Origin: Somniosus microcephalus
Lineage: Eukaryota
Reading direction: 5' to 3'
Length of the DNA stretch: 64,000 nt
Assembly: GCA_052327205.1 (NCBI GenBank)
Contig: CM126223.1
Span: 69,936,001-70,000,000 of the forward strand
Shown here: piece by piece, positions 7,575-39,818 of the stretch
Layout of the letters: each line of letters opens with the position of its first letter
Position numbering within the stretch: the stretch's first letter is position 1
The notes under the pieces: model-generated
Database searches by the model: none
Seen by the model: the letters and a program-made list of their open reading frames with translations, nothing else
Told to the model about the DNA's origin: nothing
Translations under genes and position numbers: made by a program

Positions 7575-8110
7575 TATAGGAACATAGGAACAGGAGTAGG
7601 CCATTGAGCCCCTTGAGCCAGTTCCACCATTCAATGAGATCATGGCTGATCGGTAAGCTAACTCCATATACCCGCTGACGTAATAAAGACTCACTGCGCA
7701 CTTGGTTGTACATAAAGCAAGGCTTTAATCGACTTGTAACAAAACATGGAGGTCTAGTTAGTAGTCACTAGCTTCCTGTTTCCAGACTGTCTCTGGCCAA
7801 GGTGGGCCCACGCCTGAGTATTTATACTCCTCGGGTGGCGCCCTCAGCTGGCCATTCAGTAGTACTTCTTGTAGAAGTTGCGATTTATGACACCCCCCTT
7901 TGGCCCATATCCCTTAATACATTTGGTTAACAAAAATCTATTAATCTCAGATTTAAAATTAACAATTGACCTAGCATCAATTGCCATTTGCAAAAGTGAG
8001 TTCCAAACTTCTACCAGCTTTTGCATGTAGAAGTGTTCCCATACTTCATTCCTGAAAGGCCTGTCTCTAATTTTTAGACTATGTCCACTAGTCCTAGAGT
8101 CCCCACCCAG
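7575..8110 (-). mobile_element. CR1 LINE 3' fragment (host of the solo LTR)
   Basis: CR1 tail AGGAGTAGGCCATT...CCATTCAATGAGATCATGGCTGATC, and SRTSGHSLKIR...VEVWNSL ORF2 end. Confidence 0.8.
7676..7892 (-). mobile_element. Solo LTR (217 bp) inserted into a CR1 3' tail
   Basis: TG...CA ends; imperfect terminal inverted repeat (TGACGTAA / TTATGACA); flanks CCCGC / CCCCC; minus-strand TATAAATA and ATTAAA; splits a contiguous CR1 tail. Confidence 0.72.
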
Positions 8111-8112
8111 CA

Positions 8113-8670
8113 GATAGGCCTTTCCACCATCTACAACGCACAAGTAAAGAGTGTGATGGAATACTCTCCGCTTGCCTGGATGAGTGCAGCTTCAACAACA
8201 CTCAGGAAGCTCAACACCAGCCAGGACAAAGCACCCGGCTTGATCGGCACCACATCCATCACCTTAAACACTAACTGCCTCCACCATTGGCGCACCGTGG
8301 CTGCAGTGTACGCCATCTACAAGACGCACTGCAGCAACTCGCCAAGGCTTCTTCAGCAGCACCTCCCAAACCTGCGACCTCTTCCACCTAGAAGGACAAG
8401 GGCAGCAGGCGCATGGGAACACCACCACCTCCAAGTTCCCCTCCAAGTCACACACTATCCTGACTTGGAAATATATCACCGATCCTTCATCGTCGCTGGG
8501 TCAAAATCCTGGAACTCCCTCCCTAACAGCACTGTGGGAGCACCTTCACCACACGGACTGCAACGGTTCAAGAAGGCGGCTCACCACCACCTTCTCAAGG
8601 GCAATTAGGGATGGGCAATAAATGCTGGCCTTGCCAGCGATGCCCACATCCCATGAATGAATTTTTAAAA
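8113..8670 (+). mobile_element. Non-LTR LINE 3' fragment (CR1/L2/Crack group)
   Basis: YNAQVKSVMEYSPLAW...WNSLPNS...FKKAAHHHLLKGN* RT C-terminus, then a TGAA-repeat/A tail. Confidence 0.85.
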
Positions 8671-9199: not shown

Positions 9200-10100
9200 C
9201 GGGTGTATCTTTTCCCGGGGGGGGCGCGGGGGGAGAAACCAAAGAAAAAAGAAATCAGAAACCAAGAATGCTTCGTTCAAAAGGCGCTCGATAAATCCCA
9301 GAGAAAGCTGAAGCTGATCGGTCCCTTAAACATCATCCGATCTCTGATCGCCAAGGAAATCACTCCACAGCACTCCTCCCTTCCACCAAATAAAAAAAAT
9401 GCTGAGACTCGGCGACTTTAAAAGGGGTTCTGCGAGGTAACTCGCGGTCAGACTCGCCCGAGCAGATGGAGCTCTGGCTTGTGGCGACCCTTCAGGCGCT
9501 GTCAGTTTCCCAGTGGTGCTGAAAGTGACTCGGCAGCGATGTGGTCGCTCGTCTTGGCGCTGCTGTGGTCCTCGGATACAAACTTGGTCAACTGCGACCT
9601 GGGCGCTTGGCAGGGGACGGGCAGGGCTGGCGTTCACTACCTGGTGAACGGCACCTACTGTGCCAAGAGGTCCGGCGTCCTGGCCGGGGCAAAGCAACCG
9701 ATTTTGGCCCAGATTTCCGACGGCAGCGAGATGGTGCTGTCGGTGCTGGGGCGCAGTGGCCAGGTGCTGGGCTGCTCCGTCACAAGCGAACGGGACGCGG
9801 TCCAGTCCTTCATGCACGCCTGCCGGCTCAGGTCCAGCCAGCAGCCAGGCGGCGCTTTCACCCCGAGGACTGCCCTTAAAGAGCGCTGGCAGACGGAGAG
9901 AGGCGACTGCCAGTCGTTACTGCGCCAGAAAGGGGCTCCTCGCCAAGAAGATGTAGCTGCCGGCCGGCCCTCCCGGAACACCGGGCCGGGGGCTCGATCC
10001 CCCCGACAGACGATTCTTCGCAGGAGTAAGAGGGGCTTCACCTACCCCGGGACCCTGTGGTGCGGGGCTGGGAACAACGCCGACAGCTATGAGCATCTGG
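9200..10100. promoter_or_regulatory. CpG-rich promoter/first-exon island of the PROCA1-like gene
   Basis: Sharp rise in GC and CpG content relative to the AT-rich flanks, covering the start codon and exon 1. Confidence 0.6.
9539..10100 (+). CDS. PROCA1: Group III secreted phospholipase A2-like / PROCA1 orthologue, coding exon 1 (signal peptide, N-terminal prodomain, furin site, Ca2+-binding loop)
   Basis: ATG at 9539 begins hydrophobic MWSLVLALLWSS. The frame reads RRSKR|GFTYPGTLWCGAGN (bee-venom/group III PLA2 Ca2+ loop). GT donor at 10101, phase 1. Symbol inferred from tail-to-tail position next to SUPT6H. Confidence 0.88.
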
Positions 10101-10394
10101 GTAACTGGACAAAAAAAAACCCAAAACCGATTAATACTTTGCGGTTATGTTGTTTCATTTACAAGTTTTAATCTAGAACGGAACTACAAATAGTTTAATA
10201 GCAAAACGTAATTTGACAGAATTGAAAGAGTTAAACGCTCACTTTTAAAACAGTTTGCAAGGACAGAAGCGTTAGAGCGAAAAAAATAACATTAATAAGT
10301 CTCCAGCATAAAGTAGCCAGGGAGGCAACTCAATTACGTTTAAAATTCCGAGATCTTCTGCGCTCCTTTGGTTTGATTCCGCCCAGATTAAGAA

Positions 10395-10760
10395 CATAAG
10401 AAGATATTAGGAGCAGGAGTCGGCCATACCACCCCCGAGCCTGCTCCACCATTCAATGAGATCATGGCTGATCTTCAACCTCAACTCCACTTTCCCGCCC
10501 GATCCCCATATCCCTTGATTCCCCTAGAGTCCAAAAATCTATCCCAGCCTTGAATATACTCAACGATTCAGCATCCACAGCCCTCTGGGGCAGAGAATTC
10601 CAAAGATTCACAACTCTCTGAGTGAAGAAATTCCTCCTCATCTCAGTCTTAAAATATCCTGAGACTACGCCCCCTAGTTTTGGACTCTCCAGCCGGGGGG
10701 AAACAACTTCTCACCATCTACCCTGTCAGTCCCCCTCAGAATCTAATATGCTTCAATGAT
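10395..10760 (-). mobile_element. CR1 LINE 3' fragment in PROCA1 intron 1
   Basis: Same tail family as 3895-4316. Confidence 0.82.
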
Positions 10761-10931
10761 TAAGCTGTTATCTGGGCGGAAACTCCTATGTTTAAAACTA
10801 TTTTCAGAAAGTGTTGTCTGCAGGTCCCGCGGTGAGGCTGGTACCATTCGACCATCGTTAAGTTTCTTAATCACTTCTGATGAGCCGAAATACATTTTAA
10901 CAGGCGTGGAATTGTATCTTTTGTTTTCCAG

Positions 10932-11064
10932 GTGAGTTTTCAGAAACAGATAAATGCTGCCGGGAGCACGATCATTGCGCTCATGTGATCCACCCTTTCG
11001 CATATTCCTACGGTCACAGGAACTTCAGGCTGCACACACTGAGCCACTGCGACTGCGATGCTGA
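10932..11064 (+). CDS. PROCA1: PROCA1/PLA2G3-like coding exon 2 (catalytic His-Asp and HCDCD motifs)
   Basis: ttttccag acceptor. Translates [45 protein letters not shown]. Donor gtaggt at 11065. 133 nt, phase 1 to 2. Confidence 0.93.
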
Positions 11065-11479
11065 GTAGGTAGCGGCCATTCGGCCCCTCTGTGCTTCCCC
11101 CTGTCTGTTCATTGGGGAACTGGAACAACGTGTCATTGGGAGGGGTTTTAGTGGAGAAATAAGTGACTGTGACCCCAAAAACCTTTTGACAGGGAATTGT
11201 GGAAAAGAATGCAAAGGCAATCCATAGGGACTCTGGGGTGTTATCACAGCTCTTGTAGTTTGGGGGACGGGGTGTGTGTGTGATTAAACATTGGAGAAAT
11301 TATTTGCAGCTTGAAACAAATAATTAAAAAATATATAATCAAGGACTAAGTTAGAAGGGGAAACGGCAGGAGATAAAAATCAAGGAAACAGGTCAAGTGA
11401 CAAATTTGCAGATGTAAACCTGTAGATTTTCCTCTTTCTGTGCTCTCTCTCTCACTCTCCACCTGCCTTCTCCTCGCAG

Positions 11480-11614
11480 GTTAAAGCAGTGCTTAAGAAG
11501 AGTCAACGACACGTCTTCCCGGGTTGTGGGACAGGCATTCTTCAATGTGTTAGCAGTCTCCTGCTTTGACTTGGTCTACGAGGAGCACTGTATTGAACGG
11601 TATTGGTACGGCTG
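11480..11614 (+). CDS. PROCA1: PROCA1/PLA2G3-like coding exon 3
   Basis: Polypyrimidine tract plus cgcag acceptor. Translates LKQCLRRVNDTSSRVVGQAFFNVLAVSCFDLVYEEHCIERYWYGW. gtgagt donor at 11615. 135 nt, phase 2 to 2. Confidence 0.93.
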
Positions 11615-12241
11615 GTGAGTTCACTTTTAACAATGTTGTAAATGACGCAGGCGAGTCAATGCATAGGCTGCACACTGGAAATAGCTGGTACTTGGCTCTT
11701 TCGATTTAATGATTTCACATGACACATGGAGTCAACTTCAAAGTGATGGGCTGTCATTTCAAAGAATGTCTGTATTCAGTGTGACAGACATGAACATATT
11801 GCACAAAACCCTTGGTTTTGCAAACGCCTTTGATCTATTAAGGGTAATAGACCGCGAGCCAAGATTTTCTTTGTACCATATGTGTGATGAAATCATAACC
11901 CTTTTCTTTATAAATAGGCTTAAGATTTTGTTCCGCTATGGCACAGAAAAATTCTCCCCCATATAATCAATGCAAATCTGTTCATTTATTCTATAATTAC
12001 ATTAAGGTGTGATCCTTAAGAGTATGTACTCTTTTCTGTGCAACACGATTCATAATTAGACAACAACTTAGTTTAAGTTGGTATATAACAAACTATTACA
12101 CATATTCACACAGAATTAGACTTTGAGCATTTAGCTGTATGGAAACAATGAAAGCCCCATATTGTTGATGCTCATGGAAAATAGATAGCCCATATCAAAT
12201 CATTTAGTGGTTATTATGGGAAGAGTTTTGGGTAAAACAAT

Positions 12242-12705
12242 GTCAGCTGTGGCTCAGTTGGTATCACCCTCACCTCTGAGTCAGGAGGCTGTGAGTTCAA
12301 AGTCCCACTCCAGGGACTTGAGCACATAAAGCTAGGCTGACACTCAAGTGCAGTGCTGAGGGAGTGCTGCACTGTCGGAGGTACTGTCTTTCGGATGAGA
12401 CACTAAACCGAGGCCCCATCTGCTTTCTCATGTGAATGTAAAAGATCCCATGGCACTATTTTGAAGAAGAGTAGGGGAGTTATCCCTGGTGTCCTGGCAA
12501 ATATTTCTCCCTCAATCAACATAACAAAACAAATTATCTGGTCATTATCACATTGCTGTTTGTGGGAGCTTGCTGTGCGCAAATTGGCTGCCACGTTTCC
12601 CACATTACAACAGTGACTACACTCCAAAAGTACTTCATTGGCTGTAAAGCACTTTGAGACGTCTGGTGGTCGTGAAAGGCGCTATATAAATGCACGTCTT
12701 TTTTT
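12242..12705 (+). mobile_element. Near full-length tRNA-headed DeuSINE (SacSINE1-like) in PROCA1 intron 3
   Basis: A box TGGCTCAGTTGG, B box GAGTTCAA, Deu-like core, tail GGCGCTATATAAATGCA..TCTTT. Confidence 0.82.
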
Positions 12706-13026
12706 AAAACTCCATTTTGAAATTCCACTTGCCACTGACCAAACAGTAACTTAAGATTTGGTTCATTCAGACCACTGCCAGTTAACATGGTACTATATTA
12801 ATTCAATAATCAATTGAAATGTCAATCCTGGTTTGTGGTTGTAAAAGGAGGGATTTTGCTAATTTTATACACCAGCAAATTTCAGCTAATAGTTTTCATA
12901 TGTCTATGGTTCAGGCACTGATTAAACTATACAGATGGTGGGGGAATACTGTGGAAGATTTCTGTGTAGTGAATAAAATCATTTAGGATGTAAGAGGTTT
13001 CAATTATTTCTGATCATATTTGTAAG

Positions 13027-14161
13027 GTGCAAGAAGTACGATCGTGTTCTCATTGCTGTACCCAGAGACTCTGTGCTGTATGATTATGGAGGAGATTTGA
13101 TCGATGAGCTAATAGTGGAGCCTAATCCTGACTCAGACACCCCAACAACCTTTTCTTGGCTAAGCGGCACCCCATCATTTACAGCCACCCCAGGAATCGC
13201 TAAACCGGAAGCTACAAGCCAACAGTCAACACTTGGCCAAGTGCTTAATGCAGCAGAAGACCTCCTTAAAGTCATGGCAACTGTCACTCAGAGCTCTGCC
13301 CACGGCAATGTGCCCGGCACTGCAAGCAGCACTGCGAACGAGAAGACCGGCATTTCATCAGACAAAGCCAAGAAGAAGAAAAAGAAAAGAAGGAAAGGCA
13401 AAAAGGGAAGGAAGGGGAAAGGAAAGAAGAAAAATCGCAAAGCCAAACTCAGTTCCCAAAACAGCAAGGCAACTAATATATTGCCAATCCTGGAAAAGAA
13501 AATTCATAACAAGGAGGACTATTTCACTGAGATTGAGAAGACGGGAAATAATAATGAGTTTAATCAACGTTTCTTTGACAATTCTATGGATTTGGTAGTA
13601 AAAGGAGATATTTTTAATGACGTCATGAATGATGAATCTTACAGAGGGGACAGCTTCACTCAGCTTTATCAGACCTTCACCGAGGCTGTGACCAAACCTA
13701 ATCGCAGATTTCAACATTACAGAGCTGAAGGCTTTACACCCCTAGCAGTTCCACCGATCCCTAAATCTGAATTTTATAGAGAAGGTCTGACCGCCAAATC
13801 ACTGCGCAAGCCAGATGATGCACATCTGTCCTACAGAGAAGAAACATTCACCCCGCCACCTACTAAACAAAGTCCCAATTCTCGCTCCAACAAAAAAGAA
13901 ACTTCAGTTTTAACGGTGGTTACGTCTGGACAATACAGAGAGGAGGCATCTACTCCCTTGACTATCCACAAAAAGCTTAACGAGGTGGCGATAAATGCTA
14001 AGCTGAAAGCAAACCAACCGGCTCCTCCATCAGATAGAAAAAACAAGAAACAACGGCGTAAAAGAAAAGGCAGGAGGAGGCAGCATGAAAAGACCTCAAC
14101 AAGAGAACAAGCTGATGTTACCGACAGCCCCCAGCAAGGTTGTTCACAGTGTACTCGTTAA
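13027..14161 (+). CDS. PROCA1: PROCA1/PLA2G3-like terminal coding exon (end of PLA2 domain, Thr-rich linker, Lys/Arg-rich tracts)
   Basis: tgtaag acceptor, then CKKYDRVLIAVPRDSVLYDYGG in frame with ORF 13073..14161. Total CDS 562+133+135+1135 = 1965 nt = 654 aa + stop. Confidence 0.88.
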
Positions 14162-14440
14162 CTAGCATTACAGCTTAACCTCCATGTGCATGCATATTAA
14201 AGTATGCATGGGCCAAATGCATGTATGTGCCAAATCACAAATTATACCGTAAATCATAAAAACTTTGTGACTGGTGAAAGTATGCATGCCGTTACAATGA
14301 TATCATGGAGAAGAGTGGGCTTCCTGAAATAGACTCGAAGTATACACTGAGGTTTCTTACTGTGTTTTGGTTCATTTGTTGGTTCATGATTTGTATGAAT
14401 GGACCCAACTACCCCATAGAAAGGAACCTTTATAAAGTTT

Positions 14441-14446
14441 AATAAA
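14441..14446 (+). promoter_or_regulatory. Candidate polyadenylation signal of the PROCA1-like gene
   Basis: AATAAA about 280 nt after the stop codon, followed by U/GU-rich sequence. Confidence 0.5.
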
Positions 14447-14810
14447 TCTAATACCTTTTAGCCACTTTGTTGCTGAGTACATTTTCTCTAGTTGAAGCAC
14501 ATTTGAAGATATTCAGCTGCCGTTCTTTCCCGTCACGATTCATCCCTTTCCCTCAAAAATAGCTTCGACAAATTACAAAGTTGATAGAGTAATGGCGTAA
14601 TGTCTTGTGTTTACAAATCAATGAAGATAATGTTACTATGATGGGTGTTATGGCTTGTTTGAAATGTCAATGTTTGCAGATTGACGGAATTGTAGTTTCT
14701 GGCCCTGATCAGCTGTGAAACTTACTATTGGAGATTGTGTGTAGGAAGCCAGCAATTTCCAGCTGCTACCACTTTTTCTTTCAACGTGTAAAAACTGTTA
14801 ACATTTTGAT

Positions 14811-15015
14811 CCAAAGATGTGCGGGTTAGGTTGATTGGCTATGATAAATTGACCTTAGTGTTAGGGGGATTAAATACGTGGGGTTACAGGGATAGGGTGG
14901 GATATGTGTTGGTGTAGGGGTTACGGGGATTGGGTGGGATATGTGTCGGTGCAGGCTCGATGGACCGAAATGGCCTCTATCTGCACTGTGGGGTTTCTGT
15001 GATTCTGTGATTCTC
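14811..15015 (+). mobile_element. 5'-truncated HE1-like V-SINE with an internal tandem duplication
   Basis: Reverse-complement match to the 3' half of 30138-30432. The segment GGGGTTAC.GGGAT.GGGTGGGATATGTGT.GGTG is duplicated. GTGATTCT tail. Confidence 0.78.
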
Positions 15016-15164
15016 TGGTTGTTGCAAGGAGGTTGGTTGATCTTCAAAGGAAAAAACACCCGTATACTCCAGAGAGCTTCTCACGATCTTTAGCCTTCTA
15101 TTCACCATCTTTATGACCAGTCTGGAATAGAAACTATATGAGCATGATGGTTCCATATATATCA

Positions 15165-15305
15165 GATTTCGGTAAATTTTTGGATCCTTAGGGAACCAAG
15201 GGATATGGGGATAGGGTGGGAAAGTGGAGATGAGGTAGAAGATCAGCCATGATCTTATTGAATGGCAGAGCAGGCTCGAAGGACCAAATGGCTCCTACCT
15301 CTTAT
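15165..15305 (+). mobile_element. CR1 3' tail
   Basis: GATCAGCCATGATCTTATTGAATGGC.GAGCAGGCTCGA motif. Confidence 0.75.
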
Positions 15306-18766: not shown

Positions 18767-21700
18767 TTAAATTTGCTCAATGAGTCTCTCAGGAGGCTTC
18801 ACGTGTCTTGAGAATTTTCTGATTGATTGTCCTTGAATCTGAGTTGTTGCCTCAGATGATGGTTTCTCAGCTGTGTGATCAGGCTGTTCAACAGTATCAG
18901 TCTCTTGACCTGCTGTGACTGGTCCCATGAGAAGATCTCGATGATTTCTTCTCAGAACAGCACCCTCATCTGTCTGAATGGTGTATGATCTTGGTTGAAC
19001 TTCACTCAGGACAGTTCCCTTCTGAGTCCATGTGTTTGTTTTGTCTTTGAACCTTACTTGGTCACCAGTGTGGAGTTCAGGTAGGTTTTGTGTTCCTCTG
19101 TCATAGTAGTACTTTTGCTTTTCTTTCTGTTGTTCTTTGAACTTCCTCACTTTCTCCCCCTCTTTTGTTTTCAGGAGGTTCTCCGGGATGGGTAGGTTTG
19201 ACCTTAGCCGACGTCCCATCAGGAGTTGGGCTGGTGACATACCACACTCGAGCGGCGTTGTGCGGTATACAAGCATGCTTTGGTAGAAGTCAGTTCCACT
19301 GTCTTTTGCCTTGTACATCAGTCTTTTCACTGTCTGGACCGATTTTTCCACTAGTCCATTGGACTGTGGATAGTGAGGACTTGACGTTGTGTGGACAAAG
19401 TCCCACTCTTTGGCAAAGTGTCGGAAACTTGCATTGTAAAACTGGGGTCCGTTGTCTGTGAAGACCTCGCTTGCCACGCCATGTCTGGAGAATATGGCTT
19501 TCATACATGTTATCACAGCATCTGCAGTGGTGGTGTACAGTCTACCAACCTCTGGATACAGGGAGTAATAGTCTGTGACTACAAGATAGTCCTTCCCTTG
19601 ACATACGAATAGGCCAGCGCCTACCTTCTGGTAAGGTCTGTCTGGCGCTGGATGTGGCTTTAGTGGTTCTACCGGATTGCTTGCTCGATATTTCAGGCAT
19701 ATTGTGCAGTTTGACACCTCATTTGTCACATCTTGGTTGATTCGTGGCCAGTACATCACCTCTCGTGCTCTTTTCTTACACTTTTCGATTCCCAGATGTC
19801 CTCCATGGATCCTTTTTAGCACCTCTTTTCTCAGACTCTTTGGGATAACTACTTTACTTCCTTTGTAGATGATGTCTTCGACCAGTGATAGTTCCGCCCT
19901 GCAGTTCCAGTACTCTGCCATGTCAGGTGAGCAGTCTTGCTTCATGTTGGGCCATCCATCCAAGATGCTTTTCCTCAGTCGTCTCATTGTTTTATCTTTG
20001 TTGGTCTCAGTCTTTATGAGCTCCATTTTTGCATCTGCTATGGGCAGTGCACTTGTGATCATGTCCACGTAGGCGTTCACTTTTTCATCCATTTTGGTGT
20101 TTGCGGGCTCACTTGGGTCTACAGCTCTGGACAATGTGTCTGCTGTATACATCAGCTTACCCGGTGTGTACGCAACATTCAGTGTATAGCGTTGCAGCCT
20201 GATCATCATTCTTTGTATTCTAAGCGGACAGCTATTTAGTGGCTTTTGGAACAATGCAATCAAGGGCTTATGGTCAGTCTCTACACGGATTGCTTGTCCT
20301 GCCACAAACTGGTGAAATCTTTCACAGGCGTATGTGATGCTGAGCAGCTCCTTTTCTATTTGAGCATATCGCGTCTCCGCGTCTGTCATTGAGTGCGATG
20401 CATATGCAATAGGTTGCCAGTAGTCATATTTTTGCAGAAGAACGGCACCGAGCCCACTCTGTGATGCATCTGATGATATCTTGATGGGTCTCGCTGGGTC
20501 ATAAAACCTCAGAACTGGTTCCTCTGTGAGCAGTTTCTTTAGATCGCTCCATGACTTCTCATGCTCATGATTCCATTCCCATTCTATGTTCTTTTCAGTT
20601 AGTCTTCTCAGTGGCGCCATCTTTTCTGAGAGGTTGGATATGAATTTCCCCATGTAGTTGATCATTCCATTAAACCTCTGCACGTCCTTTTTGCATTGTG
20701 GCTTTGGCATATTCTCAATGGCGGACACCTTTCTGGGATCTGATCTGATGCCCTCACTGCTAAGGATATCTCCCACGAATGTCAGTTCTGTCACCCCGAG
20801 CTGGCATTTCTCTCTATTCAGCTTCAGGTTTGTTTTCCTTGTTGCTTCTAGCACTTTTTTCAGTCTCTCGTCATGCTCAGTTCTCGTGGTTCCCCATACT
20901 ATGATGTCATCCATTGATGTATCAACTCCCTCCAGGTGCTCATAGATCATATGGATAGTTTTGTGATACACTTCAGGAGCTGAGGCAATGCCAAATGTTA
21001 ACCTTAGGAATCTGTATCTGCCAAATGGACTGTTGAACGTGCACAGTCTTGAACTTGCTTCGTCCAATTTCATCTGCCAAAATCCTGATGATGCATCTAA
21101 CTTGCTGAAATACTTTGCATTTGCAAACTGTGCCATGATTTCCTCACGTGTAGGAAGCTTGAAGTGCTCTCTCTTTATTGCTCTGTTTAGATCTCTTGGA
21201 TCCAGGCAAATTCTGAGCTTTCCATTCTTTTTGTCCACTACGACGAGGGAACTTACCCACTCAGTTGGCTCATCTATCTTCTGAATCACGTTCAGGCTTT
21301 CCACCCTGTCCAACTCTGCCTTCAGTTGCTTTTGAAGAGCAAACGGAACTTTTCTGCATGGATGTATGACCGGTGTCATACTTTTATCTACTCTGATCGT
21401 GTGTTCTCCTGGAATGCAGCCTAGACCCTTAAATAGGTCTTTGTACTCTTTCATGAGTTCATCATAGACTGTCTCTCCTTCGCTTTCCACAACGAGGACT
21501 CTCTTTACCAGGTTCAGTCTCTCACAGGCTTTTAAACCTAGTATGGCTTGCACATCCTTTGGCACCATGATTAATGCTAGCATGTGCTCTCTGTCCTTGT
21601 GTGTTACTTTGACAATGCATTTTCCTTTCACTGGTATATCAGTACCTGAGTATCCTGTCACTTTCACTTTTATTCCATGTATCTTTGGTCTGGGTCTAAT

Positions 21701-22015
21701 TTTCTTAAAATCAGTCTCTGATATCACATTAACTTGTGCTCCAGTATCCAATTTAAATGGAATGTGTATGTCATTCACTTTTAGTGTCAACATCCAGTCT
21801 CTTTCTTCTTTTTTGTTTTCAGACACAACATCTACATTGAACTCCTCTATGTCGCTTTCGTCTACTGCATGGACCTTGCTTTGTTGCACTTGGTTCTTGC
21901 AGCAACGGGCATAATGGTTGTTTCTGTTGCAACTATTGCATGTTTTACCATATGCTGGACACTTTCTTGGTGGATGCTGTGTACCGCATCGACTACATGA
22001 CTTTCGATTGTCCCT
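18767..22015 (-). CDS. pol: Open frame for zinc knuckles plus pol (protease, RT, RNase H, integrase) of the gypsy element
   Basis: Frame open from 22015: CSRCGTQHPPRKC and CNSCNRNNHYARC knuckles, LDTGA protease, RT SMDD, RNase H SSDAS/TDHKPL, integrase HHCC and TDNGPQF/SNGLVE. First integrase Asp appears replaced (VGAGLF). Confidence 0.9.
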   Translation of the reverse strand, partial: RDNRKSCSRCGTQHPPRKCPAYGKTCNSCNRNNHYARCCKNQVQQSKVHAVDESDIEEFNVDVVSENKKEERDWMLTLKVNDIHIPFKLDTGAQVNVISETDFKKIRPRPKIHGIKVKVTGYSGTDIPVKGKCIVKVTHKDREHMLALIMVPKDVQAILGLKACERLNLVKRVLVVESEGETVYDELMKEYKDLFKGLGCIPGEHTIRVDKSMTPVIHPCRKVPFALQKQLKAELDRVESLNVIQKIDEPTEWVSSLVVVDKKNGKLRICLDPRDLNRAIKREHFKLPTREEIMAQFANAKYFSKLDASSGFWQMKLDEASSRLCTFNSPFGRYRFLRLTFGIASAPEVYHKTIHMIYEHLEGVDTSMDDIIVWGTTRTEHDERLKKVLEATRKTNLKLNREKCQLGVTELTFVGDILSSEGIRSDPRKVSAIENMPKPQCKKDVQRFNGMINYMGKFISNLSEKMAPLRRLTEKNIEWEWNHEHEKSWSDLKKLLTEEPVLRFYDPARPIKISSDASQSGLGAVLLQKYDYWQPIAYASHSMTDAETRYAQIEKELLSITYACERFHQFVAGQAIRVETDHKPLIALFQKPLNSCPLRIQRMMIRLQRYTLNVAYTPGKLMYTADTLSRAVDPSEPANTKMDEKVNAYVDMITSALPIADAKMELIKTETNKDKTMRRLRKSILDGWPNMKQDCSPDMAEYWNCRAELSLVEDIIYKGSKVVIPKSLRKEVLKRIHGGHLGIEKCKKRAREVMYWPRINQDVTNEVSNCTICLKYRASNPVEPLKPHPAPDRPYQKVGAGLFVCQGKDYLVVTDYYSLYPEVGRLYTTTADAVITCMKAIFSRHGVASEVFTDNGPQFYNASFRHFAKEWDFVHTTSSPHYPQSNGLVEKSVQTVKRLMYKAKDSGTDFYQSMLVYRTTPLECGMSPAQLLMGRRLRSNLPIPENLLKTKEGEKVRKFKEQQKEKQKYYYDRGTQNLPELHTGDQVRFKDKTNTWTQKGTVLSEVQPRSYTIQTDEGAVLRRNHRDLLMGPVTAGQETDTVEQPDHTAEKPSSEATTQIQGQSIRKFSRHVKPPERLIEQI

Positions 22016-24290: not shown

Positions 24291-25419
24291 ATAAGGAATT
24301 CCTGTCCACAGGTAAACAAGAGAAAGCAAAGCCATCATATGAACTCTGATAAGAGCTAGGGTTTTAGATCTTCCCGAGCCCTACAAACAAAATAATTTAC
24401 ATACGGTTTAATCTCGAATTGGGCTCAGATTGTTTTTGACACCGATAATGTGAAATGCCTCCACTTACACTTACTCAAACTGTATTGCTGTAAGAGAAGT
24501 TAGGCATGTTGTGGTGAATTTATCAATTGCAGTTCTGCCTCAGGCTAATGCTGGTTATCAGATTTTTGGTGAGAATCCTGCTTTTTACCGGATAGGAAAG
24601 AGGTTCAGTTTCCAGGAGTGGCAATTGATTTCAATGGTGCCATGCAATTTGTTCCTTAGTTTTTGAAATTAACTTGGTGAAACTGGGGAAATGACATGAA
24701 AAGAGGGATGTCTATCGAGTCTTACAGCCTGTATTCATAATTAATTCCAGCGATTTCTTACGACGCAGGGTGGATGGGGAAAATGATCATGGAGAGTACA
24801 TCTTAGATAGCCCTTTGTGTAACTGGATTCAACTACTGCTGAGGAAATTCATTCCCCACATTTTTCAGATGCTGAGACGTCAACGTGACCTTGAGTGTTT
24901 TGCACCAATATTTTCTAAGGCATCACACAAATTCTTGGACCATGCACCTTTGGAGTCTAATGAACTACCTGTTCATAACATATCAAAGTTTACACATAAC
25001 TTATTGAAATGATTGAGCGCGCCAACTCAAACTTCAATTTAATATTGAACATTTCTCCACTAACTGCTTTGGAAATTTGTCATGTTTGCTGAAATTATAA
25101 ATGCCAGCACTGTATGATGTATTTAAATTTGATTTAAAAATTCCTCCCCCCCCCCCAATGGCATCGACTCCTTGCTCTGGTGTAGTTGCACAGGTGCAGG
25201 CTGTTCTCTGACTCAAATTACCCTGCATGTTTGGCAGTAATTAACACTTATCACACATCGTTAAAAGGATACTTAGACTGAAATGGACAAGACTAACTTT
25301 GTGGCGAGTTTAGTTCATATCTACCGTGCAAATACAGCAACTTCATGCCATTCAATGCATTTCAACGGCGAGCCAGACAGCGAGATGCCATTTTTGTGAA
25401 GCCAACGGTAGAGCAGCGC

Positions 25420-26110
25420 AACTTGGGACATCAACATCCTGGGGGTTACCATTGATCAGAAACTGAACTGGACCAGCCATATAAATACTGTGGCTACAAG
25501 AGCAGGCCAGAGGCTGGGAATTCTGCGGCGCGTGTCTCACCTCCTGACTCCCCAAAGCCTTTCCACCATCTACAAGGCACAAGTCAGGAGTGTGATGGAA
25601 TACTCTCCACTTGCCTGGATGAGTGCAGCTCCAACAACACTCAAGAAGCTCGACACCATTCAGGATAAAGCAGCCCGCTTGATTGGCACTCCATCCACCA
25701 CCTTCAACATTCACTTCCTCCATCACTGGCGCACTGTGGCTGCAGTGTGTACCATCTACAAGATGCACTGCAGCAACTCGCCAAAGCTCCTTCAACAGCA
25801 CCTTCCAAACCTGCGACCTCTACCACCTAGGACAAGGGCAGCAGACGCATGGGAACATCATCACCTACAAGTTCCCCTCCAAGCCACACACCATCCTGAC
25901 TTGGACCTGTATCGCCGTTCCTTCACTGTCGCTGGGCCAAAATCCTGGAACTCCCTTCCTAACAGCATTGTGGGTGTACCTACACCATATGGACTGCAGC
26001 GGTTCAAGAAGGCGGCTCACCACCATCTTCTCAAGGGCAATTAGGGATGGGCACTAAATGCAGGCCTAGCCAGCCAGCGACGCCCACATCCCATCAATGA
26101 ATAAAAAAAA
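25420..26110 (+). mobile_element. Non-LTR LINE 3' fragment (same family as 8113-8670)
   Basis: ORF 25490..26044 RT C-terminus; TGAATAAAAAAAA tail. Confidence 0.88.
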
Positions 26111-29672: not shown

Positions 29673-29862
29673 CTACCGATCCATTTCATCTAGCAGTGGG
29701 GTGGCATCACCAGCAATGGACATTGGGGTGCCTTCAATCATGGGACTTGGTGAAGGCCGAGGAGTCATCTTTGCTTTCTGTTTTCGTCTCTCCTGTTCTT
29801 TTTCCTGCAGCCACTGTTCTGCTATTTTGCCCCAGTCAACTGCAGTATGAGCAGTTGAAGTC
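29673..29862 (-). CDS. SUPT6H: SUPT6H last coding exon ([29 protein letters not shown]...[12 protein letters not shown])
   Basis: ttag acceptor; TAG at 29673-29675; conserved vertebrate C-terminus. Confidence 0.96.
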
Positions 29863-30137
29863 CTAAGTCAAAGGGTGAGAAACAATGTTAGTGTTCTTGA
29901 ATCCATGCGTTTGCCATGTTAAATTTTTCTTACAGCTGTATACCATCCAAAAATACAACACTCCTTCCAATCACAAGAACGCCTCCCGGATTGGGTGCCT
30001 GAAATTGGGACATTGCAAACTTGTGATGCTCAAAAAAAAACCCAGTGGATGCTCAGTTGTTGAGTATATTCAAGGTAGAGATCGATTGATTTTTGGATAT
30101 CAATCAAGGGTATGGGGATAGTGCAGGAAGGTCGAGT

Positions 30138-30432
30138 TCACAGAATCACAGAAACCCCACAGTGCAGATAGAGGCCATTTCGGCCCATCGAGCCTGCACC
30201 GACACATATCCCACCCGATCCCCTAACACTAAGGGTCAATTTATCATAGCCAATCATCCTAACCCTCACATCTTTGGACTGTGGGAGGAAACCGGAGCAC
30301 CCGGAGAAAACCCACGCAAACACAGGGAGAATGTGCAAACTCCACACAGACAGTCGCCCGAGGCCGGATTCGAACCCGGGTCCCTGGCGCTGTGAGGCAA
30401 CAGTGCTAACCCGCTATGCCACCGTGCTGCCC
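30138..30432 (-). mobile_element. Full-length HE1-like tRNA-derived V-SINE nested in a CR1 tail (host about 30045-30530, +)
   Basis: Minus strand GGGCAGCACGGTGGCATAGCGG (A box)...GGTTCGAATCC (B box), V-domain TGTGTGGAGTTTGCACATTCTCCC, GTGATTCT tail. Confidence 0.88.
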
Positions 30433-30884
30433 TATTGACCGTGTTGACGTATAAGATCAGCCACGATCTTATTGAATGGCGGAGCAGGCTCGAAGGGCCG
30501 AATGGCCTACTCCTACTTCTTATGTTCATAAACCTGTATCTTATCCAGAGCTTCAGGCATCACTTTTGATAATTAGTTGCCATTTAAGGTTGCTACTGTA
30601 ATTGGTTAAAGTGTTTATTTCCCATTCGGATACACAAGACAATGTCAATCTTTGAAAGCAAATGGTAGATCACGGGGCACATGTTTATCTTGGCGCTCCC
30701 AGCACATAGTTTGGTATGCCAGGCGTGCATATTGGGAGCCTTCCCTCATGAGTTTTCATTATTACACGCAGTCTCATTAAATAAATTCTTGATGTGCTCC
30801 TGGTGCACAAAGCTTTGCAGTGGGGTTGCTGAAAACTAAAATTCACCTCTCAATTTTACACCATTCTTCCAAGCTATATAAACC

Positions 30885-31725
30885 TAGGAACATTCAGAAC
30901 AGGGAGCAGGCCATTCAGCCCCTCCAGTATATTCTGCCATTCAAGTAGATCATGGCAGATCTGTACCTCCATTTATCTGCCTTTGATCCAAAACCCCAAC
31001 AAAATCTATCTACCTCAGTCTTCAAAGCTTCAATTGTCCCAGCGTCCACAGCATTTTTGGGGAGAGTTCCAGATTTCCACTACCCTGTGTGAAAACGTGC
31101 TTCCTGATTGTGCTCCTGTATGGCCTAGCTCTAATTTTAAGATTATATCCCCTTGTTCTTGATTTTCCCCACCGGAGGAAATAGTGCCTTCACAGCTACC
31201 CTATCAAATCCGTAGAACATTTTGAACACCTAGATCAGACCACCCCTTAATCTTCTATACTCAAAGGAATACAAGCTCTCCAAGTCCCAGTATCATTCTA
31301 GTGAATCTGCGCTGCAGTCCCTCCAAGGCCAATATATCCTTCTTGAGGTGCGGTGTCCAAAACGGACTGCAGTATTCCAGATGGGGTCTGACCAAGGCTC
31401 TATAAAAATGAAGCACGGTTTCCTCCTCGCTGTATTCCAGTCTGAGATAAAGATCAACATTCCATTAGCCTTTTTGAACTTATCTACTAGCTTTTAATGA
31501 TGTGTGTATTTGGACACCCACATCTCTTTGCTACTCTACAGTTCCTAGACTCTTATTTAAAAAATGCTCCTATTTATCTTTATTGGGTCCAAAGTGGATG
31601 CCCTCACACTTACCCACATTGAACTTAATTTGCCACAGTTTTGCTCATTTACTTAATCTTTCCATGACCCTTTGCCACTTTCTGCTCCCATTTGCATTAC
31701 TTACTGTCCCACCTAACTTGGCATC
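30885..31725 (-). mobile_element. Old CR1 LINE fragment in the last SUPT6H intron
   Basis: CR1 tail plus degraded ORF2 (reverse complement of LVRPHLEYC at about 31370-31400). Confidence 0.75.
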
Positions 31726-31750
31726 AATCAACCACTCCAAAGATACTCAC

Positions 31751-31920
31751 TTTGGCTGTGACCTTTGTCGGGTTGTAGACGGCGGTGCGACAGAAGGTTG
31801 GGGTGTAGCATTTCCATGGTACTGAGGTGTTGTAATGGGTTGCTGACTGGGTGTTGTGTACGAATAGCTTGGAGTCATCAATGGTGTTGCTACTGGCTGC
31901 TGTGCAGGAGTTGCAAAAAC
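31751..31920 (-). CDS. SUPT6H: SUPT6H penultimate exon ([35 protein letters not shown]...QP)
   Basis: AG/GT boundaries, 170 nt. Confidence 0.93.
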
Positions 31921-32997
31921 CTGAAAAAAGAATAAAGGCCGCTAAATCAGGTTCAACTAAAGGCAGAAAATAGGTAGCTAATTTAGAAGATTACAGGGAT
32001 CACACCATTCTTGTTGTATTTTAACCATGGAAAGGTACCTGTTGCTCCAACACTCAGTATTACTGGAATATAAAACAAGCTTAGACAGCCACAGGCTTCA
32101 TTACTGTATTTCTTTTTAGGATCTCTATGTTCCTTAAAGAGGTTGTTGAAAATTAAACCACAGTCAACATTACACAGTGACAATTTTAATGTCATTTGTA
32201 CTTTGAATGCATAAAATATTGCAGTACAACAAAGTAGGCAACAATCCAATGAGTATTTGAAAACATTGGGACACAAAGAAAATATGGGGTTCCAACTGAG
32301 TACATCAGTGTTTTGGAGGTAACGTTAGAGTTGGATGTAGCAAATGATTTCTTGCTGGCCAAGCTGGTATTTGCTGGCAAACTTAGATAGAAAATGTAGC
32401 GGTTGACTAAGTTCGGTGCACCTCATTCATGTAAAGACTTGAATTTGCTTGAGGTGTTGTCTTCTGTGAAGTTGCTACTTTGTTGGATAGGGCGATTTTG
32501 TAGGCAAACTCCGGGGTATCTTCAGTGAACTGCGGATTCCTCTCTAATATTATGAACCAACCCAGAGGACGAGATCTCTCCAAAGTGCCATGCTGGTATG
32601 TGGATGCACAGCATCTAGTAGAAATAGAGGCAAAGGGGGGAGTACCTTCAATTTCACTGTGACTATCCTCCTAAGCAGTGATATGACAGGCTATTTTACC
32701 TGTCATAAGATGCCAAGGAGAAGGGAGAAAAGTTACTCTGGTGCACAGTTTAGAGTTTGGCTGTTAATTGTTCCTAGGTATTTCCAACCTATCACAGATC
32801 ATGTGAAGAGGTAAGTTTCCCATTTGTGTGCTGGGTGTTTTGTGGATATTGGACATACGCTGGCTAGGGAATAGTTAAGTTGTATTTGGGACATGAGGGC
32901 AACGCTTTGGACATGAAAGATATTTAGAAATGAGCACCAATGTTCTAGGGTTTAAAAAGTTGAAATTAGAAATCTTAAGGAAAACAGTCAAACGTAC

Positions 32998-33152
32998 GTG
33001 ATAGGCACTGCTTCCGCCATAGCCATACTGACTGGATCCCCACTGTGCTGGCGTAGCATTTGGATTCTGACCCTGTCCGGAAACAGCTGCTATGGCATTG
33101 AACATTTGCGTTGTCATGTTCTGTGGGAGAGCATTAACTACTCGCGTAAGAT
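32998..33152 (-). CDS. SUPT6H: SUPT6H exon ([51 protein letters not shown])
   Basis: AG/GT boundaries, 155 nt. Confidence 0.94.
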
Positions 33153-33914
33153 CTAGCACAGAAAGGAAAAGGATTATTTTTCAAACTACTGCGTATGCCA
33201 ATTACATACTGATTTCGAGAAAATATCATTTCATTAGCACACCTGAATCAAAGTAACAGTTCTATTTTAACTGCACTGAAAGCTTACCAGATACAAGGCA
33301 GATTTAGTATGCAATATATACCATGATTCTGTTAATATTAATTACTGCAAATGGAAGTCATATACATTATAACAGTATAAATGAAAACCACAAAACCACA
33401 TAATATAACCACTTTCTTTCCACAGATATACATGTCAAAACAAATCAAACTCCACCATAAAACATTCCGGATTAGGAGGCAATTTTGTTCGATTTTATTA
33501 CCCCAATATCTCACTTTACCTCCTTTAGGTGCAAATTTGGGGTTCAGGGCTACAGGATTATAAATCTCTACAAAAACAAACCCATACAATTCATTCTGCC
33601 CACCCGGAAATATGTTTATCAGCTAAACATTAAACAGAATTAGCAGGATGGTCTTGGGAGGCACAGACCATCACTATGGAATATGGGAGGCTAAGAAGAT
33701 ACAAAATGATGTCCAACCTAACCTCCCCCATCACTGGTTTACTAAAACCGCATTAGTTAAAACTTCAAAATCCTAAGCAAAGGTTTATTTAGGTTATGCT
33801 CCTGCTGGCTGCTGAACTACTCCACTGAATTGTTAACTGGGAAATACAAGGGGCTCGAGTGATCGTGACAGCAACACTATTAAGGGAGGCAGGAGCGAGC
33901 AAAGTGTACCAAAA

Positions 33915-34122
33915 TAACAACAGAAAATGCTGGAAAAACTCAGCAGGTCAGGCAACATCCGTGGAGAGAAATTTGAGTTGACGTTTCGGGTCGAACCCTT
34001 CTTTTCAACCCGAAACTTCAACTCAAATTTCTCTCCACGGATGTTGCCTGACCTGCTGAGTTTTTCCAGCATTTTCTGTTGTTATTTCGGATTTCCAACA
34101 TCTGCAGTATTTTGCTATCGTA
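33915..34122. mobile_element. Penelope-derived palindromic insertion with 14-bp TSD
   Basis: Arms 33912-33995 and 34004-34087 are reverse complements (first 70 bp perfect). AAAGTGTACCAAAA is duplicated at 33901-33914 and 34123-34136. Confidence 0.8.
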
Positions 34123-34390
34123 AAAGTGTACCAAAAGTCAGACTTAGAACTGCAAAAGTTGCATATCAAATAAAACTTTCCACTGTAACAATCTGATTTA
34201 GTATATTATAATTAGCCATTTCCTATCATTGACATTTCCGTGATCAGTGCCATCTAGCTTTATTTATCACTGATAATAAAACTGGCATAAATACCTTCTG
34301 TCCAAGAGTATAGCAATGTATTTTATAATCAGAAACATAAGGTAACCAATACTTTTAATGCAGGAAAAACAAGTATTTCCATATATGTAC

Positions 34391-34471
34391 CTGCCAAATT
34401 AATATTAGCTGGTGTTGCATCCATAGAGGCGGGTGTTCTGCTGGATCTGCTTGTACTTGAAGGCGTAATAC
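34391..34471 (-). CDS. SUPT6H: SUPT6H exon (ITPSSTSRSSRTPASMDATPANINLA)
   Basis: AG/GT boundaries, 81 nt. Confidence 0.92.
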
Positions 34472-34723
34472 CTGGAAACAGTAATCTGTATTCATTTGGA
34501 TATTCATAGCACAAGGATAAATACCTTGTTTGCACAATCTCCACAACAACAAAAAAATTAATAAATGCCAGTGTATATTTTATCCAAGCTTTCAATAGAA
34601 TTGATTCAAATGATTAAAAAGTCAACTACCCCTGTATTTTCCTTACCAATTCATTCTAGCCCATTATAAAGCGCACAGGCATGGTGTTATCTTCACTGGC
34701 ATCTGTAGTTAGACTAGTCTTAC

Positions 34724-34836
34724 CTGGCACAGGATCCTGGAAGTGATCTTTAAACCATCGAAATAGTCCGTTCACAGTTGGGAAAACTTGCCCTCTGTAG
34801 CGGTATCCTTCTGGTGTCACCGTAACAAACTCAACC
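34724..34836 (-). CDS. SUPT6H: SUPT6H exon ([37 protein letters not shown])
   Basis: AG/GT boundaries, 113 nt. Confidence 0.95.
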
Positions 34837-34975
34837 CTGTAAAACAACATGGCATTTAGAGCGCAGACACCAAACTATGGACAGGAAATTATTTTGTTAA
34901 ACTGTTTTTTTTACAATTGCCATATAAACTTCCAGATGTTTAAACCACTACTACGGCAGGCTCCCTTCAATAATA

Positions 34976-35308
34976 CAGGAAACTTTGGTTTATCCGGAGG
35001 TTGCATGTCCAGAAACCTCGATCTACCGGCAGAAATCAGGAGCTGTTTTGTTAGGTTTTTTTTCTTCTCGTGGCTTTGTTTTCAACAGTCAGGCTCTGGA
35101 AAGTCTCTCTGAAGCTGTTGCTAAGCTACAGAGACGCTTCCAAGGTACGGGCCGACTGTTTACAAGCTGTTGCTAAGCAACAGTATTTGTTGTCAGATAC
35201 GGAGATGAAAACCTCCGTATCCTTCAACATTAACTTTGTATGTCCGGCAGTTTTGATAGATCGGCAACAGCTCGGTCCTGTCGGTGCCGGATATAACAAA
35301 GTTTCCTG
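34976..35308 (+). mobile_element. Tigger/pogo-like MITE, family A copy 2 (diverged)
   Basis: TA-CAGGAAACTTTG...CAAAGTTTCCTG TIRs; shared internal blocks. Confidence 0.8.
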
Positions 35309-36009
35309 TTTACGGTATCTCTACAATAGATTTTCTATCTTTACAGAAAGAACTACAGATTAATTCCTCACATCCTAAACCTGAAGCACAAAGAACCCTA
35401 TCTTCGACAGCAGCTGAGTTACAGTCTTAAATTTATTTCAAATTCTCACAACTCTAGCAAATTCACATCTTTGGTCTCCACACTAATAGACCATCTTTGA
35501 AAGAAATTAAGATTTTCTAAAAATAGAATATTCTCCTGTCCTAAAATGAACCATTTACATCATATCATAAATTAAAACACCTAACTGAGTTGTGGCAGAT
35601 CCCTTCTAGTCACCTACTGTGATCAGAATGCTGCCGGTTTCAGTTAACGACTAAGATCAGACTGGGTCTGTACCTTTATGCGGATATAAAACAATGCGGC
35701 ATGTAATTCATAATTGAGATTCACATGCTTTTTCAGCTCAAGACTTCCAGGAACACTGCTATCCACTCTGTAACCCCACGAGTGTGACACTTATTTTCCG
35801 GTGTGCAATCACAAGTATCAAAATTATATCCGTAATAAATACTTAATAGGGCCCAGGGAGAGGAGAGAACTTTCAATACAAGAATTACATGGGCTTATTT
35901 AGAATGTTAGTTGTATGTATCTGGATTAACCAGAAGCAGGGTTATAATTACTGAGGTTTCAGGAACAGTTTATCTATTGATAATAGAGTAACATTTTGGG
36001 GATATTAAC

Positions 36010-36134
36010 CTTGGTTTAGCACGAGGTTGGTAGCCTAACAAAAATTTTCCCGGCAGTTCCTTTGATGCTGAAACAAAATAGGGAATAAAAGAGGGCTTTT
36101 CCCTTTTGGATTTTGATAGGAGCTCTTCCATTTT
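36010..36134 (-). CDS. SUPT6H: SUPT6H exon ([41 protein letters not shown])
   Basis: AG/GT boundaries, 125 nt. Confidence 0.94.
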
Positions 36135-36364
36135 CTAGAAAGAAAAACAATTAATGCCACATTTAATATTTTTGTATAGTCACACAGAACATGAAGGTAC
36201 AGTATAACCCCCCCAAAAATGACCATTTAAAGGGGTTTTTTTTTGGGCAGAGATTAATTTTAAAGTTTAATTAAAAAAAAACATGAACATGACTCTTGCC
36301 TTTACAAACTCTGACTGACCTGCTGTGTATCATCAGCATTAAGTTTTTTATTTTAACGGACAGC

Positions 36365-36750
36365 AGCAGGGATGAGGGACTTCAGTACGTGGAGAGACGA
36401 GAGAACCTGGGATTGTTCTCCTTAGAGCAGAGAAAATTTAAGGGTAGATTTAATAGCGGTGTTCAAAATTATGACGGGTTTCGATAGAATAAATAGCGAG
36501 ACACTGTTTCCACTTGCAGAAGGGTTGGTAATCAGAGGAGACAGATTTGAGGTCATTGACAAAAGAGATGAGAATAATTTTTTTTTACCCTGTGAGTTAT
36601 GGTGATTTGGAATTTGCTGTCTGAAAGGGTGGTGGAAGCAGATTCAATATTAACTTTCAAAAGGGAATTGGATGAGTTGAGGAAGATCAGCCATCTTCTA
36701 ATTGAATGACAGAATAGGCTTGAGGGGTTGAATGGCCTATTCCTGTTTCT
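36365..36750 (+). mobile_element. CR1 LINE 3' fragment
   Basis: YVERRENLGLFSLEQRKFKG ORF2 end plus tail. Confidence 0.75.
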
Positions 36751-36765
36751 TAAAGCATGATTTTT

Positions 36766-36824
36766 TTTTGTAGAGCTTGTGCAAATCTAGTGTGTTTTTG
36801 TAGAGCTTGTGCAAATCTATTGTG
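36766..36824. repeat. Tandem duplication, period 30
   Basis: TTTTGTAGAGCTTGTGCAAATCTA.TGTG occurs twice. Confidence 0.8.
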
Positions 36825-38184: not shown

Positions 38185-38298
38185 CTTGCGGTCTCCACCA
38201 CTGCAATCCTGGTAGTATTTGTGATATAGCAGGTCGCGAGCAAAAGATGCCATTGGCTGCACATAGCGAGCAGTAATTTCATCAAGGTCTTCAAATTC
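38185..38298 (-). CDS. SUPT6H: SUPT6H exon ([38 protein letters not shown])
   Basis: AG/GT boundaries, 114 nt. Confidence 0.95.
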
Positions 38299-38490
38299 CT
38301 GGATAATGAAATTGCAGATCAAAAACTAAGAAACTTATAATGCAAGATGTGCTTTTCAGTAAGATACATAAACATACAATGTATATATCACTATAAACAT
38401 TTGCAGAACCACTTTAATTTAAAAACCTCACTATACATTTTACACCAAGGTGTTTCATGCTCTGCAGAGATACGCCTCAAACATCTGAAC

Positions 38491-38617
38491 CAACGTCTCC
38501 TCTAAATTTTGCCCCCTGCGTGGGCCCTATAAATTTGCTGCGTGGTATCTCTTCCAGTGGTGGCTTGCGCGGTACTTCACGATTGGTGTGCAGCCGCGCG
38601 CCTTAGGGGGAACATTG
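38491..38617. mobile_element. Tiny hAT MITE (127 bp) with 8-bp TSD
   Basis: TIRs CAACGTCTCCTCTAA / TTAGGGGGAACATTG. ATCTGAAC duplicated at 38483-38490 and 38618-38625. Confidence 0.82.
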
Positions 38618-39802: not shown

Positions 39803-39818
39803 TATTAGAGTGACTCAC

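Follow-up and report, generated by a model that had tools for sequence, protein, structure and literature searches.

An intact PROCA1 gene in Somniosus microcephalus predicted to encode a secreted group III phospholipase A2

Reviews count 11 mammalian secreted phospholipases A2 (sPLA2s) with one group III member, and mammalian PLA2G3 is described as being processed to an active core (PMC7603386, in excerpt). The catalytic pair of the bee enzyme is numbered His34/Asp64, and the mutation H34Q abolished its activity (PMC4773801, in the text available). For PROCA1, "protein interacting with cyclin A1", a cytoplasmic location and a partnership with cyclin A1-CDK2 have been reported (PMC9830831, in excerpt). 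The protein is included in the boar sperm phosphoproteome (PMC8322956, likewise in excerpt), and a table in the available part of PMC10379444 places chicken PROCA1 in glycerophospholipid metabolism. The term "proca" was absent from the accessible portions of the vertebrate PLA2 family papers checked. None of the papers listed by our literature searches treats PROCA1 as a second group III sPLA2 or describes the loss of that state in placentals, none is a functional or evolutionary study of non-placental proca1, and none reports on the activity, secretion or cleavage of a PROCA1 protein. The PLA2 domain of PROCA1 orthologues is already visible in automatic database annotation, by which several of them are named "phospholipase A2" in UniRef. 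Here we analysed a window of 64,000 nt from Somniosus microcephalus (contig CM126223.1, positions 69,936,001 to 70,000,000), and propose that the gene described below is a cartilaginous-fish PROCA1 orthologue, a second vertebrate group III PLA2 gene beside PLA2G3, and probably encodes an active, secreted, calcium-dependent enzyme.

Gene structure and active-site residues

The gene occupies positions 9539-14161 of the window on the plus strand and consists of four exons, with a coding sequence of 1965 nt that translates into 654 residues without internal stops; all three introns are of the GT-AG type. Exon 1 (9539-10100) encodes a hydrophobic N-terminus, an N-terminal (pro)domain, a furin-type site and the calcium loop, whereas exon 2 (10932-11064) carries His200 and Asp201 (10967-10972) together with the partner Asp230 (11057-11059). 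Exon 3 (11480-11614) contributes the third helix, the remaining domain cysteines and an N-glycosylation sequon at N241. The last domain cysteine is encoded by exon 4 (13027-14161), followed by a basic, Ser/Thr-rich tail of 349 residues with a pI of 10.0 and two Lys/Arg clusters, and a TAA stop. In a related organism, a contig of 2395 nt, from a run presumed to be RNA, has precisely the same four exons joined and extends to 14649, past a candidate poly(A) signal AATAAA at 14441-14446 on the plus strand. The shark PROCA1 gene is thus intact, and it is spliced correctly in a close relative. Exon 2 is kept in this contig, and exon-2 skipping is rejected as the main form.

Pfam PF05826 matched exons 1, 2 and 3 in profile order, at profile positions 2-20, 23-63 and 66-95 with E values of 0.0033, 1.9e-13 and 6.1e-7, respectively, and an orthologue 90% identical to the shark protein scored 129 bits against the same profile. 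A short signal peptide (9539-9595, plus strand, about residues 1-19 with an approximate end) is predicted from hydropathy alone, the best 8-residue mean being 2.44. The predicted proprotein-convertase site RRSKR (aa 161-165; 10019-10033, plus strand) precedes the mature N-terminus G166, and is followed by [22 protein letters not shown]; HCDCD is also present. The calcium-binding loop YPGTLWCGAGN (10043-10075, plus strand) comprises WCGAG at residues 174-178, with W174, G176 and G178, and the 90%-identical orthologue aligns to bee PLA2 (1poc). An orthologue alignment to 1poc also matched the catalytic His200 and its partner Asp230, and the calcium-binding Asp201 directly follows His200. Ten cysteines are found in the core domain, at mature positions 10, 31, 32, 38, 62, 64, 71, 95, 104 and 113; these are the disulfide residues of the group III core, with the family's pairing pattern presumed. 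The open frame was confirmed, as were the convertase site, calcium loop, catalytic residues, HCDCD motif and expected cysteines on which an earlier note had based its claim of an apparently intact group III PLA2.

Comparison of a skate orthologue model with 1poc gave an E value of 5.5e-10 and a TM score of 0.74 by target length. In a fold search with the full-length skate model only three bee PLA2 entries fell below E 0.001, and the N-terminal domain had no credible match; the C-terminal tail of this model is of low confidence.

The motif CCxxHDxC was found in 119 of 120 non-placental orthologue rows, marsupials included, and WCGxG in 115 of the 120. The sequence R-x-x-R stands immediately before G[FL]TYPG in 114 of the 120 non-placental orthologues, and the N-terminus has a hydrophobicity of at least 2.0 in 97 of the 120 rows. 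All seven aligned marsupial proteins are intact, as is that of opossum, and the long basic, Lys-rich tail is kept from shark to marsupial. One orthologue search was used with the best 120 of 157 matches listed; there was no monotreme among the matches listed, and none of the matches was recognised as a lizard-venom group III protein. Judged from these alignments, the intact state with its Lys-rich tail is the norm across non-placental jawed vertebrates and not peculiar to this shark. The tail, which the earlier note had given as a feature of the mammalian protein, is present in placentals; its distribution leads us to reject it as a mammalian novelty.

The protein might be secreted and keep its fold but have little lipase activity or none, and serve mainly as a ligand or use its basic tail to bind membranes or matrix. 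We consider this unlikely: across jawed vertebrates, 115-119 of the 120 non-placental rows share the His, the two Asp and the glycines of the calcium loop without change, as catalysis under selection predicts. On the other side, signalling by some sPLA2s does not depend on catalysis (PMC4773801, in excerpt), and the conservation of the long basic tail would suit a binder. Placentals retain PROCA1 despite lost catalytic motifs, and therefore a non-catalytic role exists at least in that lineage.

It is more doubtful still that, behind an intact sequence, the gene is no longer expressed or has begun to decay in S. microcephalus. Of two RNA runs from this species (tissues unstated), about 24% and 31% were read, and in both the exon reads were near zero, with a depth of at most 0.39 in repeat-free bins. 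Against this improbable reading stand the open 654-codon frame, the canonical splice sites, the short terminal branch of the shark gene in the tree (0.048) and the abundance of the spliced contig in the close relative.

Orthology and neighbouring genes

The nine best matches of exon 2 were chondrichthyan proteins with 83-95% identity, six of them named proca1 or PROCA1-like. Phylogenetic analysis placed the shark gene within a chondrichthyan clade (99/93), nested in a 40-row PROCA1 clade (100/98) and separate from PLA2G3 (98/99). The same split between PROCA1 and PLA2G3 was obtained without the exon-1 columns (SH-aLRT 95), and in both trees the lamprey and hagfish rows lay closer to PROCA1 with weak support. 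A genome search revealed two group III loci, the gene at 9539-14161 and one on C19; the latter has a WTVPGT start and an exon of the Cys-containing PLA2G3 C-terminal domain, which is absent in shark PROCA1. In addition, placental PROCA1 scored higher against the shark protein than against all four PLA2G3 proteins tested (for armadillo, 139 bits against no more than 85.5). The clade and the separate C19 locus uphold orthology to PROCA1 and paralogy with PLA2G3, as the earlier note had supposed. The two genes probably stem from a genome duplication early in vertebrate history.

Human PROCA1 lies tail-to-tail with SUPT6H, with RAB34 upstream on the same strand. Exons of SUPT6H were located downstream of shark PROCA1 at 29675-43401 on the minus strand, also tail-to-tail, including the last coding exon (about 29675-29862) and exons with profile matches to SH2_2 (38936-39166) and HHH_9 (43003-43401); these are domains of Spt6, the protein encoded by SUPT6H. 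Exons of a Rab gene lie 85-108 kb upstream of shark PROCA1 on the same strand, in agreement with the expected RAB34, and the closest paralogue of this gene is on C19 together with PLA2G3. Searches of a 34-aa Rab exon against Pfam, the ESM Atlas and the PDB yielded only family-level names (Ras/Rab); the gene is presumably RAB34 and not RAB36. An Rfam scan of the 120 kb upstream, for snoRNAs that could mark RPL23A, gave no matches and was uninformative. An identity with PLA2G3 itself, or with a duplicate of PLA2G3 confined to sharks, as the common Pfam family and the database label "group 3 secretory phospholipase A2" of sturgeon and bichir PROCA1-clade proteins could suggest, is hardly credible and is rejected by the tree and the distinct locus on C19, with the placental scores and the flanking SUPT6H and RAB34-like genes also against it.

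Degeneration in placentals and proposed mechanism

The placental orthologues differ: CCxxHDxC and the WCGxG calcium loop are each present in 0 of 120 rows. The calcium-binding Asp is replaced in all 120, mostly by Lys, whereas the catalytic His is kept in 115 and the partner Asp in 88; an N-terminus with a hydrophobicity of at least 2.0 remains in only two rows, and the signal peptide is gone. The earlier note had described the mammalian protein as degenerate, with both the His-Asp dyad and the calcium loop lost. This holds for placentals and for the loop; a loss in all mammals is rejected by the intact marsupials, and of the dyad it is the Asp that was lost and not the His. Since CCxxHDxC is present in 119 of 120 non-placental rows, marsupials included, and in none of the 120 placental rows, the later conversion to a pseudoenzyme is upheld, and is placed on the placental stem and not at the origin of all mammals. 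Because the catalytic motifs are broken in every placental copy examined, the human protein has probably lost its enzymatic function and been put to another use within the cell.

We propose that the shark protein would enter the secretory pathway by its predicted signal peptide, and that a furin-type convertase would cut after RRSKR to remove the folded N-terminal domain. The core of about 140 residues would bind Ca2+ through Asp201 and the backbone of W174, G176 and G178, and His200, held by Asp230, would activate a water molecule for cleavage of the sn-2 ester in phospholipids of membranes or lipoproteins. The basic tail is probably either removed by trimming or used to anchor the enzyme at anionic surfaces. 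In the stem lineage of placentals the signal peptide and the calcium loop would have given way to a new 5' end, and Asp would have changed to Lys, likely giving an intracellular pseudoenzyme. On balance we favour the wider scheme in which PROCA1 is a second jawed-vertebrate group III secreted PLA2, active from sharks to marsupials, and was turned by first-exon replacement and the Asp-to-Lys change into an intracellular, sperm-associated pseudoenzyme.

If this is true, there is an additional unstudied secreted PLA2 in fish, amphibians, reptiles, birds and marsupials, and its name, which comes from an intracellular human interaction, masks it. Studies of lipids, immunity and reproduction would be affected in zebrafish, Xenopus and chicken, all of which permit a PROCA1 knockout, and human PROCA1 would gain an origin. 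PROCA1 would also be a dated example, open to testing, of an enzyme that turned into a pseudoenzyme and exchanged the secretory pathway for the cell interior, an undescribed shift of both chemistry and compartment coinciding with the origin of placentals. The finding is sound and modestly novel, and changes no general principle.

Comparison with known group III enzymes and PROCA1 proteins

The fold and active-site layout modelled for the skate orthologue resemble those of bee venom PLA2 (Api m 1, PDB 1poc). However, the identity is only about 34-37%, the position of bee Tyr87 is Phe in the shark protein, as it mostly is in the PLA2G3 rows displayed, and the shark protein has large N- and C-terminal extensions; nothing suggests a venom role. 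Similar to shark PROCA1, vertebrate PLA2G3 has an N-terminal domain, a basic convertase site, a central PF05826 domain, the calcium loop, the His/Asp residues and ten cysteines, and the core exon breaks match. It differs in having its own clade and chromosome, a GWTxPG-like mature start in place of GFTYPG, and a Cys-containing C-terminal domain, whereas shark PROCA1 ends in a long basic low-complexity tail. Placental PROCA1, including the human protein, is an orthologue by the tree and shares the Lys-rich tail as well as the exon 2-4 sequence, with the His, most of the Cys and the ERxWYGWCK stretch, but is without the hydrophobic N-terminus, the calcium loop, the furin motif and the calcium-binding Asp. 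The direct orthologues of the shark gene are the database entries named proca1 or PROCA1, with PF05826, from sharks, fish, amphibians, reptiles, birds and marsupials.

Gene structure and transcript evidence

The joined reading frame of PROCA1 comprises four exons on the plus strand (9539-10100, 10932-11064, 11480-11614 and 13027-14161), with GT-AG introns throughout, and encodes 654 residues with no internal stop. A leader of 165 residues ends in RRSKR and precedes the mature start; His200 and Asp201 lie in CCREHDHC, and the HCDCD motif supplies Asp230. The core domain carries ten cysteines, and the C-terminal tail of 349 residues is basic, with a pI of 10.0. Pfam search revealed that exons 1-3 cover the PF05826 profile in order. 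All four motif groups described in the earlier note, namely RRSKR, the Ca2+ loop, the catalytic motifs and the cysteines, were found in the translated protein; the signal peptide it had claimed agrees with a hydrophobic N-terminus, being predicted from hydropathy only. An upstream open reading frame of about 18 codons (9466-9522, plus strand), out of frame and ending shortly 5' of the start codon, lies here together with a TATA-like TTTAAAA near 9417. It could reduce PROCA1 translation, provided that the transcript includes it.

Four sequencing runs were aligned to positions 9200-15000. A 2395-nt contig links all four exons, each of its three joints agreeing with a predicted GT..AG junction; it comes from X1, a run of another organism with exon identities of about 94-98% that is only guessed to be RNA. 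As this contig crosses every predicted joint, exon 2 is included in the relative, and the skipping of exon 2 considered in the earlier note was not seen there. A second run, X2, covers the third joint only. The two same-species RNA runs, read to about 24% and 31%, gave almost no reads on the PROCA1 exons, their depth falling on intronic repeats; any expression in Somniosus microcephalus would probably be tissue-restricted. LINE/SINE-type repeats occupy introns and flanks at 8078-8608, 10364-10751, 12250-12700, 14800-15300 and 25412-26044, the intronic ones attracting nearly all RNA reads placed on the locus.

Gene neighbourhood and orthology

The Spt6 domains HHH_9 and SH2_2 were found on the minus strand downstream of PROCA1, with the last coding exon of SUPT6H nearest, near 29.7-29.9 kb, therefore giving the tail-to-tail arrangement that the earlier note describes for mammals. 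Between PROCA1 and this exon, a 1082-residue open frame (18767-22015, minus strand) with protease, reverse-transcriptase, RNase H and integrase-like motifs, judged by eye, is read as a Ty3/Gypsy-type LTR retrotransposon. On the plus strand upstream of PROCA1, six exons of a Rab gene were located at a distance of 85-108 kb. The searches name it to the family level only; we take it to be RAB34, which in human lies upstream of PROCA1 on the same strand.

In a protein search with exon 2, the best nine of 50 matches were chondrichthyan (83-95% identity), six of them named proca1 or PROCA1-like. The genome search with this exon yielded two loci among 8 candidates, the window gene and one on another contig, C19 (25.84-25.87 Mb, matches L013-L015). 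Since the core of the latter begins with WTVPGT and its C-terminal-domain exon matches teleost PLA2G3, it is PLA2G3 proper; its Ca2+ loop and HD motif look intact. The only other genome match to an upstream Rab exon (71%) is also on C19, at 69.24 Mb, about 43 Mb from PLA2G3. Such a Rab paralogue on the contig of PLA2G3 is compatible with two chromosome segments related by duplication, as judged from two gene pairs only.

A tree of 75 core domains (141 columns) placed the window gene with sharks, rays and chimaera (support 99/93), within a PROCA1 clade of 40 rows (100/98) containing chondrichthyans, ray-finned fish, coelacanth, lungfish, tetrapods, marsupials and placentals, while the PLA2G3 rows form a separate clade (98/99). 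A second, quicker tree without the exon-1 columns (108 columns, five long-branch rows left out) gave the same split. The window protein therefore groups with PROCA1 and not with PLA2G3, as the earlier note had supposed. Because the alignments are short, the deep forks, including the lamprey and hagfish placement, are tentative. Five lamprey and hagfish group III proteins (P0191, P0195, P0221, P0229 and P0264) look nearer to PROCA1 than to PLA2G3, with weak support, and one lamprey protein begins with GFTYPG. Because of this closeness, PROCA1 may be the more conservative paralogue of the pair.

Conservation and predicted activity outside placentals

In the best 120 of 232 PROCA1 proteins of the non-placental set (non-placental wherever named), CCxxHDxC is present in 119, WCGxG in 115, a furin-type motif before the mature start in 114 and a strongly hydrophobic N-terminus in 97. 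The five proteins without the calcium loop miss the whole exon-1 part and look like incomplete gene models. Among the orthologues P0003-P0183, the leader is longest in sharks, chimaera, lungfish, sturgeon and bichir (153-196 residues); it shortens to 120-126 residues in one lizard and one frog, to 64-66 in one snake and one turtle, and to 34-36 in chicken and marsupials. The model of the skate orthologue matches the bee PLA2 fold. Its N-terminal part, roughly residues 26-114, is modelled with confidence as a domain made of one beta-sheet plus two helices, for which no PDB match was found; the tail is of low confidence. The shortening of the leader suggests repeated loss of this folded domain within amniotes.

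Based on family knowledge, PROCA1 would enter the secretory pathway and be cleaved by a convertase, Asp201 together with the backbone of the loop would bind calcium, and His200 and Asp230 would catalyze hydrolysis at the sn-2 ester. In mammals, PLA2G3 is reported to undergo processing that yields an active core (PMC7603386), and His34Gln is reported to abolish the activity of bee PLA2 (PMC4773801). The chief rival is that PROCA1 acts mainly as a non-catalytic ligand. The position of bee Tyr87 is Phe in 118 of the same 120 proteins; however, the PLA2G3 rows examined mostly have Phe there too, so this is no argument for lost activity. We consider it likely that PROCA1 is a secreted, active enzyme.

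Proposed conversion on the placental stem

The placental set, the best 120 of 157 proteins gathered with a placental query (placental wherever named, many being isoforms and not independent), includes afrotherians, xenarthrans, laurasiatherians and euarchontoglires, with no monotreme among the matches listed. Neither WCGxG nor CCxxHDxC occurs in any of these 120. A hydrophobic N-terminus remains in 2, and 80 have an unrelated MWVRTT start. The catalytic His is kept in 115 and its partner Asp in 88, whereas the calcium Asp position is occupied by Lys in 83, Gln in 15, Arg in 9 and Asp in none. Thus the degenerate PLA2 domain that the earlier note gives for mammals holds for placentals but not for marsupials, which are intact (7/7 aligned, plus opossum); likewise, of the claimed loss of the HD dyad and Ca2+ loop, the loop and the calcium Asp are gone while the His is mostly kept. 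Even with the exon-1 columns removed (second tree), the placental stem is a long branch of 0.54 changes per site, and one conversion on it would be the simplest history. The overall interpretation, including the proposed later conversion to a pseudoenzyme, is upheld once the loss is restricted to placentals and to the parts that bind calcium.

Databases already name the orthologues proca1, assign PF05826 and in part call them phospholipase A2. A chicken transcriptome table places PROCA1 under glycerophospholipid metabolism (PMC10379444), the placental protein is described as cytoplasmic and linked to cyclin A1-CDK2 (PMC9830831), PROCA1 is recorded in boar sperm (PMC8322956), PLA2G3 is given three domains (PMC2708930), and a review lists 11 sPLA2s in mammals, one of them in group III (PMC7603386). 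No account of PROCA1 as a phospholipase or of a placental loss was found among the open-access papers listed. Within a conserved family that already carries annotation, the window PROCA1 is not unusual; less ordinary are what is apparently a second group III sPLA2, seemingly unstudied, and its probable conversion on the placental stem. The replacement of the calcium Asp by Lys in placental PROCA1 (83 of the best 120 of 157) resembles the Lys49 PLA2 homologues of vipers, which belong to an unrelated sPLA2 group and seem to offer a parallel.
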